This document shows, piece after piece, positions 12,518 through 15,692 of a stretch of DNA of 39,203 bases (its first letter is position 1; each line of letters opens with the position of its first letter). A program made the translations under genes and the position numbers. The notes below the pieces were generated by a model that was given only the letters and a program-made list of their open reading frames with translations, was not told the DNA's origin and made no database searches. The stretch is taken from UHGV virus genome UHGV-0043900; one strand, 5' to 3'. The DNA is from a virus.

Positions 12518-12603
12518 TTTTGACCTGGACACAAAGGGCGCGTGGTTGATCTGGATGCTTTCAGAAAACATCGCCAGTGACATAGTGGAAGTTGTTTGGT
12601 TTA

Positions 12604-12637
12604 CCGGAAAGCATTGTGCTTTCCGGTTTTGTTTCAG
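12604..12637 (+). terminator. Rho-independent terminator between convergent repressor and Dam genes
   Basis: 10-bp perfect stem CCGGAAAGCA/TGCTTTCCGG with 3-nt loop, followed by TTTTGTTT. Confidence 0.5.
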
Positions 12638-13398
12638 AAGTTGCAGATTACCAGTTCACGGCGCGGCGTGGGTTTCCCCGCCAGACTGTAGTTGATATTC
12701 ACCGTCTGTATGTTCAGTTCAGTGAACACCCGACGCATCTGCGGAATGTCATTCACCGAGATAATCATCTTTCCTCTGATGCACCGTGCCAGTTCTGCGA
12801 GTAGTGTGTAGTTCTCTTCAGGAAAATCCACACCATAGCCTTCCGTCCCCAGATAGGGCGGATCACAGTAGAACAGCGTGTGCGGACGGTCATAACGCTT
12901 AATGCACTGGTGCCAGTCCATGTGTTCTATCACCGTTCTGGAAAGCCGCAGGTGTGCCGCTGACAGTTCTTCTTCAATCCGGAGCAGGTTGAAGCGTGGC
13001 GGGGAGGTGGTGGAGGTGCCGAAGCTGTGCTCTGCCACCTTGCCCCCAAACGCCTGCTTCTGGAGGTAGTAGAACCGTGCCGCACGCTGGATATCCGTCA
13101 GTGTTTCTTCCGGGGTGATCTGCTGCCATTTGTAGATCTGCCGGCTAACCAGCGCCCATTTGAATTGGCGGACAAATTCTTCCAGATGATGCTTTACTAC
13201 CCGATACAGATTTACCAGTTCACCGTTGATATCGTTAATGACTTCGATCTTGCTGGGAGTCTTGAGAAAATAAAGTGCTGCTGCGCCGCAGAATGGCTCC
13301 ACATAGCAGGTATGGAGTGGGAACTGGGGCAGAATGTGTTTGGCCAGACGACGTTTTCCCCCAATCCAGGGGACGATGGGTAAAGATTGTTCTTTCAT
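12634..13398 (-). CDS. Orphan DNA adenine methyltransferase (Dam/D12-class N6-adenine MTase)
   Basis: N-terminal IVPWIGGKRRLAKHIL, FCGAAAL AdoMet motif and catalytic DPPY (LFYCDPPYLGTEGYG). Start set at the internal ATG 13398 (MKEQSLPIVPW). No restriction partner evident. Confidence 0.8.
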   Translation of the reverse strand: MKEQSLPIVPWIGGKRRLAKHILPQFPLHTCYVEPFCGAAALYFLKTPSKIEVINDINGELVNLYRVVKHHLEEFVRQFKWALVSRQIYKWQQITPEETLTDIQRAARFYYLQKQAFGGKVAEHSFGTSTTSPPRFNLLRIEEELSAAHLRLSRTVIEHMDWHQCIKRYDRPHTLFYCDPPYLGTEGYGVDFPEENYTLLAELARCIRGKMIISVNDIPQMRRVFTELNIQTVNINYSLAGKPTPRRELVICNF

Positions 13399-13445
13399 TA
13401 TCTGTAAGCCTTTTTCATTAGATGAAAATGCGATAGGCTTCCCTT

Positions 13446-13457
13446 GTTCTCGAGAAC
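13446..13457. promoter_or_regulatory. Perfect 12-bp palindrome GTTCTCGAGAAC in the Dam / paralog-1 divergent intergenic region (candidate operator)
   Basis: The duplicated cassette carries a different perfect 12-bp palindrome at the equivalent position (14081-14092), so dyad symmetry is preserved despite sequence change. Confidence 0.35.
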
Positions 13458-13500
13458 GGAAGAGCCTCGGTTGACTCACAGCTCATACCTGTAAGTTGAT

Positions 13501-13550
13501 GACTCGCCTTGTGTTCGCTGCACAAGGTGAGTCGCTCTTTTCATGTTATT
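13501..13550 (+). terminator. Strong hairpin plus U-rich tract upstream of paralog 1 (terminator or attenuator-like element)
   Basis: 13-bp stem GACTCGCCTTGTG/CACAAGGTGAGTC (one G-U pair), 7-nt loop, then GCTCTTTTCATGTTATTTG. The cassette copy at 14138-14181 has a different stem with the same architecture. Confidence 0.45.
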
Positions 13551-13592
13551 TGCATATTTCATGGGCGACAATTAAAGGGAGTTACTAATACC

Positions 13593-13973
13593 ATGGCCCC
13601 AAAAAATATTGAGCGGTTTAATGAAATAGTTGGTGAGATATTTGGGAGACTCTACGAATCTTTCCCCGTCAAAATTGATATAAAGGCAGTTGATATCGTT
13701 AGACAGAATGAACTTACTTTTTTTCTTGATACCGTAGACTGGCTTAAAAACAGTGGCTATTTAATCGGGGCGCGTAGTTCTGGGGGGATCCACAACGCAG
13801 TGCTAACGGCTAAAGGTCTTGAGGTATTAAACGCTACGCCTGGAAGTCTGGAAAAACCGTTGGGGGCCAGAATATCTGACTCTATAAAAATTGAAGGGAA
13901 AGAAGCGTTGCGATCACTGGTTAGCCAGACTCTAGGAATAGGTCTGCAATATATGTCTCGTGGTCTTATGTAA
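13593..13973 (+). CDS. Small protein of unknown function (127 aa), paralog 1 of a duplicated pair
   Basis: Internal ATG of ORF 13509-13973 with RBS AAAGGGAG. Shares FxxIxGxIFxRL, DTxxWL and VLTxKxLxxLNATP blocks with the protein at 14439-14843. AT-rich codon usage. Confidence 0.6.
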   Translation: MAPKNIERFNEIVGEIFGRLYESFPVKIDIKAVDIVRQNELTFFLDTVDWLKNSGYLIGARSSGGIHNAVLTAKGLEVLNATPGSLEKPLGARISDSIKIEGKEALRSLVSQTLGIGLQYMSRGLM

Positions 13974-14033
13974 TATCGCAAGGCAGCGTTTGCCACCAAT
14001 CCATGGAACGATGGGTAATGTCTGCGTTTTCAT
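13932..14033 (-). pseudogene. Remnant 5' end of a second Dam methylase gene (about 20 conserved codons)
   Basis: Reverse strand encodes MKTQTLPIVPWIGGKR, homologous to the start of the intact Dam (MKEQSLPIVPWIGGKRR), then diverges into the 3' end of paralog 1 and stops after 33 codons. Confidence 0.55.
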
Positions 14034-14080
14034 AATCTGTAAACATTTTACAATTATTAAAAATATGGCAGGCTAGTCTG

Positions 14081-14092
14081 GTCTCGCGAGAC
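14081..14092. promoter_or_regulatory. Perfect 12-bp palindrome GTCTCGCGAGAC (candidate operator of the duplicated cassette)
   Basis: Positional equivalent of GTTCTCGAGAAC at 13446-13457, with the same flanking conserved block CCTCGGT-G-CTCACAGC. Confidence 0.35.
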
Positions 14093-14137
14093 TGACTGAA
14101 CCTCGGTCGGCTCACAGCCACTTCTGTGGGACGATGG

Positions 14138-14181
14138 CCAGCCCGGTGGGTCCGAAGCACCGGGCTGGTCGTTCTTTCATG
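14138..14181 (+). terminator. Hairpin plus U-rich tract, second copy of the cassette leader element
   Basis: 11-bp perfect stem CCAGCCCGGTG/CACCGGGCTGG, 9-nt loop, then TCGTTCTTTCATG. Confidence 0.45.
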
Positions 14182-14224
14182 ATGCGGCAGGGATGAAGTG
14201 ATTTCTGTTAATGTGGTTTAGGGA

Positions 14225-14440
14225 TTATCCGGGGCGATTTTCTGACCTTATCTGGTCCAGGGCATAAGTAATACCTTCTGCAAAAACAGAAGTATCAAAC
14301 TGCTTTTGTATTTCCTGAAAATGAACTGTGGCACGACAGACACTCAGTTCTCCGCGATGTAACCGGATAATATCTTCCAGAACATTGTTCACTGCTTCAG
14401 CACGGCGCTGATGTTCTGTTAACGTTAATCGGGGATTCAT
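14225..14440 (-). CDS. Hypothetical 71-aa helical protein
   Basis: ORF whose ATG overlaps head-to-head with the ATG of the 14439 gene (CATGATG). No recognisable motif. Confidence 0.4.
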   Translation of the reverse strand: MNPRLTLTEHQRRAEAVNNVLEDIIRLHRGELSVCRATVHFQEIQKQFDTSVFAEGITYALDQIRSENRPG

Positions 14441-14843
14441 GATGCACTCCTTAAATGATGATTTTTATGCACTCACCGGCAAAATATTCTGCCGATTACT
14501 GAACACGCATCCGGCACCTCAGGTTTTGATTTATTCTGGTTTTTTCGATATCCCGGACCAGGTTGATCACGACCAGAAAAAGTGCCGGTATTTTATTGAT
14601 ACGCTGATATGGCTTCGGGATAACAGCTATATTCGTTACTCTCAGTTGCTGGCTGTGGGAGCGGCTGATGTCGTCCTCACGGAAAAAACGCTCCGTCTGC
14701 TCAATGCCACGCCGACCCTTCTGCAGCCCCGGCCCGCACCATTTAAAGAGTCACTTCTGGATGCAGTAAAAACCGGTGAAAATGCAGTCATCGCTGAACG
14801 CGTATCCCGGATTATGAGTTACGTGTTTAATGAACGTAAGTGA
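14439..14843 (+). CDS. Small protein of unknown function (134 aa), paralog 2 of the duplicated pair
   Basis: RBS GGGGA then ATG-ATG. Roughly 25-30% identity by eye to paralog 1 over conserved blocks. 3' end overlaps the convergent P-loop gene by 25 nt. Confidence 0.6.
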   Translation: MMHSLNDDFYALTGKIFCRLLNTHPAPQVLIYSGFFDIPDQVDHDQKKCRYFIDTLIWLRDNSYIRYSQLLAVGAADVVLTEKTLRLLNATPTLLQPRPAPFKESLLDAVKTGENAVIAERVSRIMSYVFNERK

Positions 14844-15562
14844 GGTTTATCCGCTGTCTGCATAATCCCGATAGCCAGTGCGAGGGGAAGTAATTCCGGG
14901 GAAGTTCTTTCAAACAGCGATTCCCATTCTCCTCTCGCCATCACTCTGTCCAGCCCGCCCTCCAGTTGCATTTCAGCAATCTTCCTGATTTCCCGGAACA
15001 ACGCCTCTTTGATCACTTCATGCTCAGCTTTATTTTCCGGTGTCAGAATGTATTCGTCGAAGAACCGGGGAGGCTGGTTAACGGGGATTGTGTTCACCGG
15101 GATGTGTTCCTGCTTCCCGTACTTCGGGGCCGAAAAACATTCTGTTGGCTGACCAGTGAGTTTACGTAGCTCCTTCATGAGCAGCTCCTGATCGTAAACT
15201 GCCATCAGTGCCGCAATAGTGGCATGCAGTGCATCGGGCAGTGTCCATGGGTACTGGCCTGTGGGGCATATAACATCCAGCAGTGCATTCGTCCGGAGAA
15301 TGCATCCCTCGCTGTATGACATCGGAGTTTTTTCTGTGTATTCCTCCAGTCGGATAAGTGTGCCTGCCCGTGGTTTCTGCCATGTGCTCAGATCACCCCC
15401 ACTCATACGGCGCTCACCGTCCACGTCTGCGGCGTCGACAATGACGCTGTTTCCGAATTCCTGTTTCACCACTTCCTCTATCCGCGCCAATATGTAACTT
15501 TTACCGCTGCCCACAGGACCGGACACGGTGACAGTGATGACCGGATTCAGTGTCTGCGTCAT
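14819..15562 (-). CDS. Small P-loop NTPase/kinase-like protein (247 aa), unknown function
   Basis: N-terminal Walker A VTVSGPVGSGKSY, followed by hhhhD-like SVIVDAADVDG. Strong RBS GAGGAG. Resembles small nucleotide-kinase or zeta-toxin-like folds in layout only. Confidence 0.7.
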   Translation of the reverse strand: MTQTLNPVITVTVSGPVGSGKSYILARIEEVVKQEFGNSVIVDAADVDGERRMSGGDLSTWQKPRAGTLIRLEEYTEKTPMSYSEGCILRTNALLDVICPTGQYPWTLPDALHATIAALMAVYDQELLMKELRKLTGQPTECFSAPKYGKQEHIPVNTIPVNQPPRFFDEYILTPENKAEHEVIKEALFREIRKIAEMQLEGGLDRVMARGEWESLFERTSPELLPLALAIGIMQTADKPHLRSLNT

Positions 15563-15634
15563 ATCGTATTCTCCTCTGTGAATAATTCATCGTTTATCCT
15601 GCACATCCCGTATCCCCGGCTCTCTTAACGCGCT

Positions 15635-15673
15635 TTAAAATCCTTCGCGCCCTGTATTTGTGATGCTGTCTCC
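15635..15673 (+). promoter_or_regulatory. Candidate activator-dependent late promoter of the lysis operon
   Basis: TTAAAATC-N23-CTGTCTCC with inner CTGTATTT, about 20 nt upstream of the holin ATG. The same bipartite motif at identical spacing occurs at 23030-23068. Confidence 0.4.
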
Positions 15674-15692
15674 ACCAGATAAGGAGACACAC

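Follow-up and report, generated by a model that had tools for sequence, protein, structure and literature searches.

Few accessory genes are as common in temperate phages as those encoding orphan Dam methylases, and we know of essentially no account of how phage Dam is controlled outside Mu. The systems closest to the one treated here are small phage and transposon RNAs and the com-mom region of Mu. The C4/CI antisense RNAs of P1, P7 and P4, about 80 to 100 nt long, are built of a closing stem and two hairpins and base-pair with the ribosome-binding region of the adjacent mRNA, the pairing segments differing between related phages. RNA-OUT/RNA-IN of IS10, OOP of lambda and sar of P22 combine a constitutive promoter with a translation start as target, and the com-mom control region of Mu comprises the divergent promoters momP1 and momP2, the activator C and Com; the leftward momP2 was reportedly described by Sun and Hattman in 1998. 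Here, we analyzed the virus genome UHGV-0043900, a stretch of 39,203 nucleotides (hereafter, the window), in which an element directly upstream of the DNA adenine methylase gene dam is repeated in tandem. Each repeat unit very probably constitutes an independent, structured small RNA gene of about 100 nt, located on the plus (+) strand and divergent from dam.

A probable structured RNA gene pointing away from dam

Relatives of the element were gathered by an exact-pattern scan and via Dam homologues in IMG/VR (L-numbers denote comparison contigs), and a covariance model, R1, was built from alignment A2, comprising 31 diverse copies. Copy 1 and copy 2 of the window are both full-length by R1 (99.7 and 109 bits, the latter for the RNA at 14081-14179, +). 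The family shares four helices, P1 to P4, in which P2 closes a three-way junction carrying P3 and P4 to give a Y-shaped domain. A first-pass annotation of this DNA had pointed out that structure is kept between the two copies as sequence changes, and had argued from this for a functional element. The larger homologue set bears this out: the stems do covary, and the palindrome, the hairpins and the block-tail helix show compensatory changes in dozens of phages, with an excess of G.U over A.C pairs on the + strand of about tenfold or more.

P1 is a 5'-terminal palindrome. Across phages, 34 distinct palindromes of 8 to 22 nt occupy the same position, and their inner seven pairs comprise 208 Watson-Crick, 16 G.U and no A.C pairs. 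The two 12-bp palindromes of different sequence recognized earlier in the window are indeed present, as GTTCTCGAGAAC in copy 1 (13446-13457, +; starting 6 nt past the -10 element, at about +1) and as GTCTCGCGAGAC in copy 2 (14081-14092).

The "conserved block" and "U-rich tail" that the first-pass annotation had listed separately are instead the two strands of one covarying helix, P2. In copy 1, the 5' strand (GGAAGAGC, 13458-13465, +) pairs with 13534-13541, also in the single-sequence minimum free energy (MFE) fold, and the 3' strand with its U-tract (GCTCTTTTC, 13534-13542, +), likewise seen in the MFE fold, marks the probable 3' end of the RNA. In copy 2, GAAC (14098-14101) pairs with GTTC (14171-14174), after which a U-tract follows. 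We counted 31 distinct P2 helices, with 6.35 of 7 positions paired versus 5.22 when partners were permuted (0 of 5000 permutations as high) and a wobble bias on the + strand of 30 G.U against 2 A.C. They include GGAAGAGC/GCUCUUUU in copy 1, GAAC/GUUC in copy 2 and, elsewhere, ACGGUGC/GCACCGU, ACAGGGC/GCCCUGU and GUUUGGC/GCCAAAC. Between copies 1 and 2, the block differs by G/A and the tail by C/T(U), and these changes therefore represent a compensatory pair. Directly 3' of the first P2 strand of copy 1 lies the junction CTCGG (13466-13470, +). We had read AGCCUU in the junction as an anti-Shine-Dalgarno sequence and dropped this, given that the complementarity is lost in type-2 elements and the G-to-A change is explained by P2 covariation.

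Within the junction, P3 (GGCUCACAG ... CUGUGGGUU in the family) is formed in copy 1 by TTGACTCACAG, the loop CTCATAC and CTGTAAGTTGA (13471-13499, +), as indicated by fold, covariation and sequence, and spans 14107-14134 in copy 2. P4 is a hairpin of 14 bp in copy 1 (13501-13533, +), recovered as an inverted repeat, in the terminator scan and in the MFE fold, and covers 14136-14170 in copy 2. As the first-pass annotation had recognized, the hairpin arms 13501-13513/13521-13533 and 14138-14148/14158-14168 are inverted repeats whose stems are unrelated between the copies; both hairpin regions are more stable than shuffled sequences (z -4.9 and -3.6). Together, P3 and P4 gave a covariation score of 0.445, compared with 0.200 in shuffles (0 of 500 as high) and at most 0.14 in slid controls, and 11 of 12 P4 pairs carried double-sided changes. 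The P4 apex, GGUG-(U/C)Unnn(G/A)-CACC (window 13511-13523, for example), is kept across distant phages and the lower stem varies freely in alignment A3; the apical loop may contact a protein or another RNA.

P1 and the P2-closed Y were reproduced by single-sequence MFE folds of the elements of B3, VP882, phiE125, MuM16-1, phiHAP-1 and copy 1. Since most members have a U-tract past the P2-closed junction, the domain can be described as a branched terminator-like structure; the 3' end of copy 1 was classed as terminator-like by the scan, its stem being branched.

Four observations place the functional molecule on the + strand. First, 94.7% of P3/P4 cells are able to pair on this strand versus 78.3% on the dam-sense strand, and on the + strand 132 cells are G.U against 10 A.C. 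Second, a hexamer resembling a -10 element precedes the palindrome. Third, a pyrimidine- or U-rich stretch lies downstream of the structure on the + strand only. Fourth, homology between phages stops directly after this stretch, whatever adjoins it. The earlier assignment of the element as a leader or attenuator of dam does not survive this comparison, as the dam-sense strand is the one that pairs poorly and both the -10 element and the U-tract point away from dam. What the analysis demonstrates is the RNA gene itself, together with the strand it occupies, its folding and its association with dam.

The hexamer, which precedes the palindrome by 6 to 7 nt, conforms to TAnnnT; all 62 sequences have A2 and T6, and 48 have T1. 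Variants include TAGGCT, CAGGCT, TAGAAT, TAGACT, TAAACT and TATACT, among others. A2 and T6 are the hallmark positions of the sigma70 -10 element. A TTTnCA-like -35 element lies 16 to 17 nt before the -10 element in about half of the sequences, with at least four of six bases matched in 33/62. In copy 1, the putative promoter (13412-13439, +) consists of TTTTCA (13412-13417), a 16-nt spacer and TAGGCT (13434-13439), and in copy 2 (14047-14074, +) of TTTACA (14047-14052), a 16-nt spacer and CAGGCT (14069-14074). The sole promoter-like call of the scan near the element, TTTTCA-16-TACAAT at 14027-14054 (+), overlaps the start of the dam stub in copy 2; it is not conserved in copy 1 and is, for this reason, probably fortuitous.

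The first-pass annotation took the palindrome for a protein operator and the hairpin with its U-rich tail for a leader or attenuator of dam. The dyads are perfect in form, their center is self-complementary in 31 of 34 variants (the other three, GUGC, being wobble-symmetric), and their location, near +1 of the RNA promoter and some 40 bp upstream of where a locally initiated dam transcript would begin, corresponds to classical operator and activator positions. However, the structure and signals lie on the wrong strand for dam, and all P1 deviations are G.T on the + strand, which indicates pairing at the RNA level; a pure DNA site would show both kinds of deviation equally. In addition, the outer extensions of P1 carry asymmetric bulges, no further palindrome copy was found in the window at up to two mismatches or in the VP882 genome, and neither a cognate regulator nor, among the compared Dam loci, a protein co-varying with the palindrome was found. 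Palindrome type also fails to follow Dam sequence: L015 encodes a Dam 96% identical to that of the window and has the other palindrome type. The putative late-promoter dyad upstream of the holin gene also differs in sequence. We therefore regard the operator and attenuator model as very unlikely. A variant in which the palindrome is a late-activator (Mor/C type) site was dropped, the palindrome being unique in the window and the holin dyad TTAACGCGCTTTAA (~15625-15640) unrelated.

The 12-nt palindromes form marginal hairpins (-0.9 to -3.8 kcal/mol) and strong homoduplexes (-18 to -26 kcal/mol). Although we place low confidence in it, P1 could serve as a dimerization element through which two RNAs join as a perfect 12-22 bp duplex in a two-fold symmetric dimer. 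This would explain the self-complementary center, the G.U-only deviations and the combination of strong homoduplexes with weak hairpins. If so, the fast-evolving palindrome would act as a specificity code for which RNAs pair, and the window would encode two mutually incompatible RNA types. Alternatively, an additional dimeric binder at the DNA level may account for the symmetry.

Other readings of the element were tried and dropped. A 22-codon leader peptide on the minus strand, from an ATG in CATG after the tail to a conserved CTGTGA, has the same length in both copies and was ruled out as the ATG is missing in L009, L012 and L017. A small open reading frame (ORF) from GATG before P4 has a non-conserved start (GACG, ACTG or GCTG in relatives). 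The hammerhead-like core UGAUGA between P3 and P4 is not conserved and has no Rfam match, and complementarity of the P3 loop to sequence past the tail shows no covariation.

Relation of the RNA to dam expression

The intact dam gene (12634-13398, -) encodes a D12-class N6-adenine DNA methyltransferase (Pfam PF02086, E 2.1e-27; "DNA adenine methylase" in RefSeq) and starts at an ATG complementary to 13396-13398. The -35 element of the RNA promoter is about 14 nt from this start codon and the whole promoter lies within about 50 bp of it; in some phages containing com, a small Mu-Com-like zinc-finger gene that precedes dam, the com start codon occupies the -35 position itself. Any local dam or com promoter must therefore overlap the RNA promoter. 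A dam promoter placed face to face with the RNA promoter, with RAGGCT to the right of the palindrome, was considered and discarded because it is not conserved (L052, L084, L065).

Within AAGGCUUACAGAUAAUG, the stretch from the Shine-Dalgarno sequence to the AUG of dam, lies the translation-initiation motif GGCUUACAG (13402-13410, -), which nearly copies the P3 5' arm. Similarity between the ribosome-binding region and the P3 arm averaged 6.36 of 9 for cognate pairs versus 5.70+-0.14 for permuted ones (0/5000 as high), and the two vary together, with matching variants such as CUUGCAG, CUCACG (L087), GGCCAGC (L069), GCUUUUG..CAGG (AM106) and CCCAC (phiHAP-1). Because the P3 5' arm mimics the ribosome-binding region and changes jointly with it, this region can pair with the P3 3' arm. 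Specifically, the copy-1 P3 3' arm CUGUAAG is perfectly complementary to CUUACAG of dam, at the cost of a C.A mismatch within P3. This covariation suggests that the RNA regulates dam translation.

The dam-linked RNA probably regulates dam, and we lean somewhat towards an RNA gene divergent from dam that governs the expression of dam or com; its transcription, its target and the sign of its regulation are deduced from sequence. How it might do so can be stated more tentatively, as repression through promoter competition combined with occlusion of the ribosome-binding site. A constitutive, stable small RNA would restrain dam (or com) expression. A local dam promoter would have room only where it overlaps the RNA promoter, and competition between them is therefore expected. 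In addition, the P3 3' arm would pair with the Shine-Dalgarno-to-AUG region of dam and hide its ribosome-binding site, with the P3 5' arm standing in for the dam target within the RNA itself, and the many conserved G.U pairs in P3 could allow the 3' arm to take either partner.

Several points weigh against this interpretation. A simple consensus scan gives no promoter at TAGGCT, which has three of six consensus bases, and the start site and 3' end of the RNA are themselves predictions. The U-tract after P2 is weak in many members, the 10 nt that follow holding 3.9 T on average (range 1-9), and the type-2 E. coli elements have a P2 of 4 bp and an MFE fold that departs from the consensus. The palindromic center of P1 is not explained by a simple hairpin, the loop of which needs no such symmetry. 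Finally, a duplex of the P3 3' arm and the ribosome-binding region would be rich in G.U and could form only once P3 opens, and the mimicry is weaker in com-containing phages.

The co-variation of the ribosome-binding region and the P3 arm fits equally well a model in which a long dam-sense leader is functional, arising by late-gene read-through or from a far-upstream promoter. Here, the complement of the P3 5' arm (CUGUGAGCC) would sequester GGCUUACAG as an anti-ribosome-binding sequence, and the + strand RNA would be a full-length cis-antisense partner that opens or cleaves the leader, possibly activating dam. In B3 the module is flanked by the tail chaperone and tape-measure genes, which run in the same direction as dam, and late transcription must consequently cross the RNA gene in antisense; the same co-orientation is found in VP882, phiE125, KS9, phiHAP-1 and MuM16-1, which makes leaders formed by read-through plausible in these phages. 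The dam-sense strand also lacks a U-tract past the structure, and dam-sense MFE folds pair the ribosome-binding region with precisely this complement of the P3 5' arm in phiE125 (14 pairs) and AM106 (11). Nevertheless, this long-range pairing is absent from the MFE in six of eight dam-sense folds, and the simplest BcepMu-like relatives, L009 and L017, have a divergent holin operon immediately upstream and hence no obvious source of such a leader. Nor does the model by itself explain the + strand selection of G.U pairs, the promoter or the U-tract. We consider a long leader rather unlikely; it complements the proposal of a divergent RNA gene and may coexist with it.

A further possibility is that the element forms the 5' leader, riboswitch or attenuator of the + strand genes downstream of it, namely 13593-13973 and the holin operon. 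Copy 1 is followed after 47 nt by the co-oriented gene 13593-13973, which lacks a strong promoter of its own, the holin/SLT operon comes directly next in L009 and L017, and a helix-closed three-way junction with a U-tract resembles an aptamer with a terminator. The genes that follow copy 2, and those in L030, L064, L070, L072 and L073, are convergent instead, and in VP882, phiE125 and other phages a convergent late gene lies tail to tail with the RNA, their 3' ends adjoining. Moreover, homology always stops at the tail, dam is the only invariant neighbor, and no Rfam riboswitch matched. A general downstream leader thus appears extremely unlikely. Of the earlier leader proposal, then, the part concerning dam does not hold, and copy 1 could additionally act as a leader in its particular context ahead of 13593-13973.

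Distribution, duplication and prophage setting

The dam-upstream region is conserved well outside E. coli, over GC contents from 0.39 to 0.68. R1 matched at about 60 of 72 Dam loci in IMG/VR phage contigs, each match lying immediately upstream of dam or the Com-like gene and on the strand that does not encode dam. It also matched the named phages VP882 (Vibrio), MuM16-1 (Shewanella), phiE125 and KS9 (Burkholderia), B3 (Pseudomonas), AM106 (Acinetobacter) and phiHAP-1 (Halomonas), the records of which have a gap of about 130-190 nt without real annotation before dam. VP882 contains one copy (NC_009016, 20850-20975, minus strand, 65.7 bits), and in B3 the RNA sits upstream of com-dam. The RNA and dam (or com-dam) travel as a two-gene module, carried by Mu-like, lambda-like and P2-like/hapunavirus temperate phages of Gamma- and Betaproteobacteria. 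R1 did not find the element in Mu or in BcepMu, which has no dam.

Rfam 15, whose families include the C4 antisense RNA, ribozymes and riboswitches, returned no match in the whole window at gathering thresholds, and a permissive search (E<=10) of 13380-14260 gave only chance-level hits of at most 21 bits, against thresholds of 50-85. In the literature searched, we found no prior description of the dam-linked RNA, save a possible overlap with VpdS, discussed below.

Three observations concern individual records. Tiny or overlapping ORFs are annotated over the RNA gene in B3 (L097, 1067-1292) and VP882 (L105, 20588-20920); B3 ORF45 and ORF46 and VP882 gp36 are probably spurious calls. In L056 and L058 the RNA (1330-1460) is about 1 kb upstream of dam with one gene between them, possibly a second methyltransferase, so the module can carry more than one gene. 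The Bacillus phage vB_BpuM-ZY1 (L104, OR820920) encodes a Dam 66% identical to the window-type Dam of proteobacterial phages; its 127-nt gap upstream of dam gave no R1 match at E<0.1, and either its assignment to Bacillus or the provenance of the record seems odd.

The repeated cassette reported by the first-pass annotation is real: window 13343-13545 recurs at 13978-14180 with 72-78% identity and an offset of 635-636 bp, and the unit spans about 203 bp rather than the proposed 140 bp. A repeat search aligned 13343-13439 with 13978-14074 (97 nt, 72%) and 13448-13482 with 14084-14118 (35 nt, 74%), and a MAFFT global alignment of both copies gave 78% mean column identity, with homology stopping just past TCTTT(T)C. 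Copy 2 also retains the Dam 5' remnant described before, with 16 residues kept (MKTQTLPIVPWIGGKR; 13978-14033, -) and unrelated residues thereafter (ORF 13932-14033, -), as seen from the ORF translation, the alignment of the copies and comparison with the single-copy relative L002. This remnant matches the Dam N-terminus of single-copy relatives; relative to L002, its Shine-Dalgarno region is mutated from AAGGCTTACAG to AATGTTTACAG (GCC to ACA).

The region occurs in 556 of 5426 complete E. coli genomes (~10%). About 490 of these are single-copy, since their matches (90-95%) come in two pieces without the 635 bp, and 68 have the insert. From these counts, the tandem copy is a recombinational insertion of a segment comprising the 5' part of dam, a type-1 element and gene 13593-13973 ahead of a type-2 module. 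Such an event would leave a dam 5' stub plus a second, intact RNA gene. Copy 2 is identical from the -35 hexamer to the tail to the RNA of single-copy relatives, with the Shine-Dalgarno sequence of the dam stub decayed. The sister contig L007 shares the duplication and has a central A.C in its copy-2 palindrome (GTCTCACGAGAC). As the P1, P3-loop and P4 sequences differ between the copies, the window encodes two different RNAs.

The window represents a BcepMu-like (genus Bcepmuvirus) transposable prophage of E. coli, 100% identical to NZ_CP054662; among phage records, that of Escherichia phage PhiKM is the closest. Locally, the genes are arranged as a DDE-transposase early operon (-), an HTH repressor (+), dam (-), small accessory genes and a holin/SLT late operon (+). 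The repressor gene and the 3' end of dam flank a perfect inverted repeat of 11 bp that carries a T-run (ACCGGAAAGCA TTG TGCTTTCCGGT TTTGTTT, 12603-12627) and is likely the terminator for both of these convergent genes. The inserted accessory gene 13593-13973 (+, 126 aa) is a paralogue of gene 14439-14843 (27% identity, E 2e-12), and neither has a Pfam match.

From the RNA tail to the holin promoter (13546-15660) extends a hotspot of cargo exchange, which is empty in L009 and L017, holds three to four accessory genes in the window and carries other genes in L023-L025, L030 and L032-L035. Within it, the starts of two divergent genes overlap, namely those of the 71-aa gene 14225-14440 (-) and of the 134-aa gene 14439-14843 (+), and the 247-aa gene 14819-15562 (-) shows only a weak P-loop match. 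Upstream of the holin gene, at 15620-15680, the motif TCTTAACGCGCTTTAAAATCC ... ATTTGTGATGCTGTCTCCAC is shared with L009, L012 and L017-L031, where it reads CACTATTAACGCTGTTTAAAATCC; it holds the imperfect dyad TTAAcGC|GCtTTAA and is probably a late promoter of the Mor/C type.

Comparison with described systems

The analysis defines a covariation-supported RNA partner of phage Dam and provides a covariance model ready for annotation. For the orphan dam module, it supplies a testable regulatory hypothesis based on ribosome-binding-site mimicry and promoter overlap, and the RNA occurs in the laboratory model phages B3, VP882, phiE125, KS9 and phiHAP-1. Its structure is notable for a palindrome anchored at the predicted start site that tolerates only G.U deviations and for a branched, terminator-like domain.

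VP882 is also the source of VpdS, an Hfq-binding small RNA of about 50 nt (Sprenger et al. 2024, as summarized in PMC12197685), and is described there as a trans-acting regulator of host and phage mRNAs. The P4 hairpin and tail of the VP882 element alone amount to about 46 nt, near the length given in that summary, and VpdS may or may not derive from the dam-linked RNA locus.

The element occupies the same genomic slot as Mu com-mom, directly upstream of a DNA-modification gene. In both, a promoter directed away from this gene overlaps the region before it, and some family members (B3; L046-L060) are likewise located upstream of a Mu-Com-like zinc-finger gene. The term momP2 itself appears in PMC4287176 and PMC3378877. 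The two systems differ in sequence and content. A homologue in Mu (the momP2 transcript) or BcepMu was sought with R1 and dismissed, the best score in the right end of Mu being 6 bits; gin stops some 20 bp short of the mom promoter region, and the Mu sequence shares no motif with the element. No GATC cluster is present in 13400-13545 or 14035-14180. Unlike its Mu counterpart, the element lacks a TTAT-N6-ATAA C site and encodes a conserved structured RNA.

In architecture, the dam-linked RNA resembles the C4/CI RNAs, being likewise about 100 nt long with a closing stem and two hairpins. The C4/CI RNAs, however, arise by processing of the 5' leader of their target operon and use loops for pairing, whereas the dam-linked RNA has a putative divergent promoter of its own, carries a palindrome at its 5' end and would pair through a stem arm. 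With RNA-OUT/RNA-IN of IS10, OOP and sar it has in common that a small, stable, structured RNA is made next to or overlapping the 5' end of the regulated gene. In contrast to those systems, the RNA gene and dam stand back to back, so that a dam mRNA started nearby would have no overlap with the RNA, and complementarity would instead be provided by a separate, co-evolving mimic of 7-9 nt.

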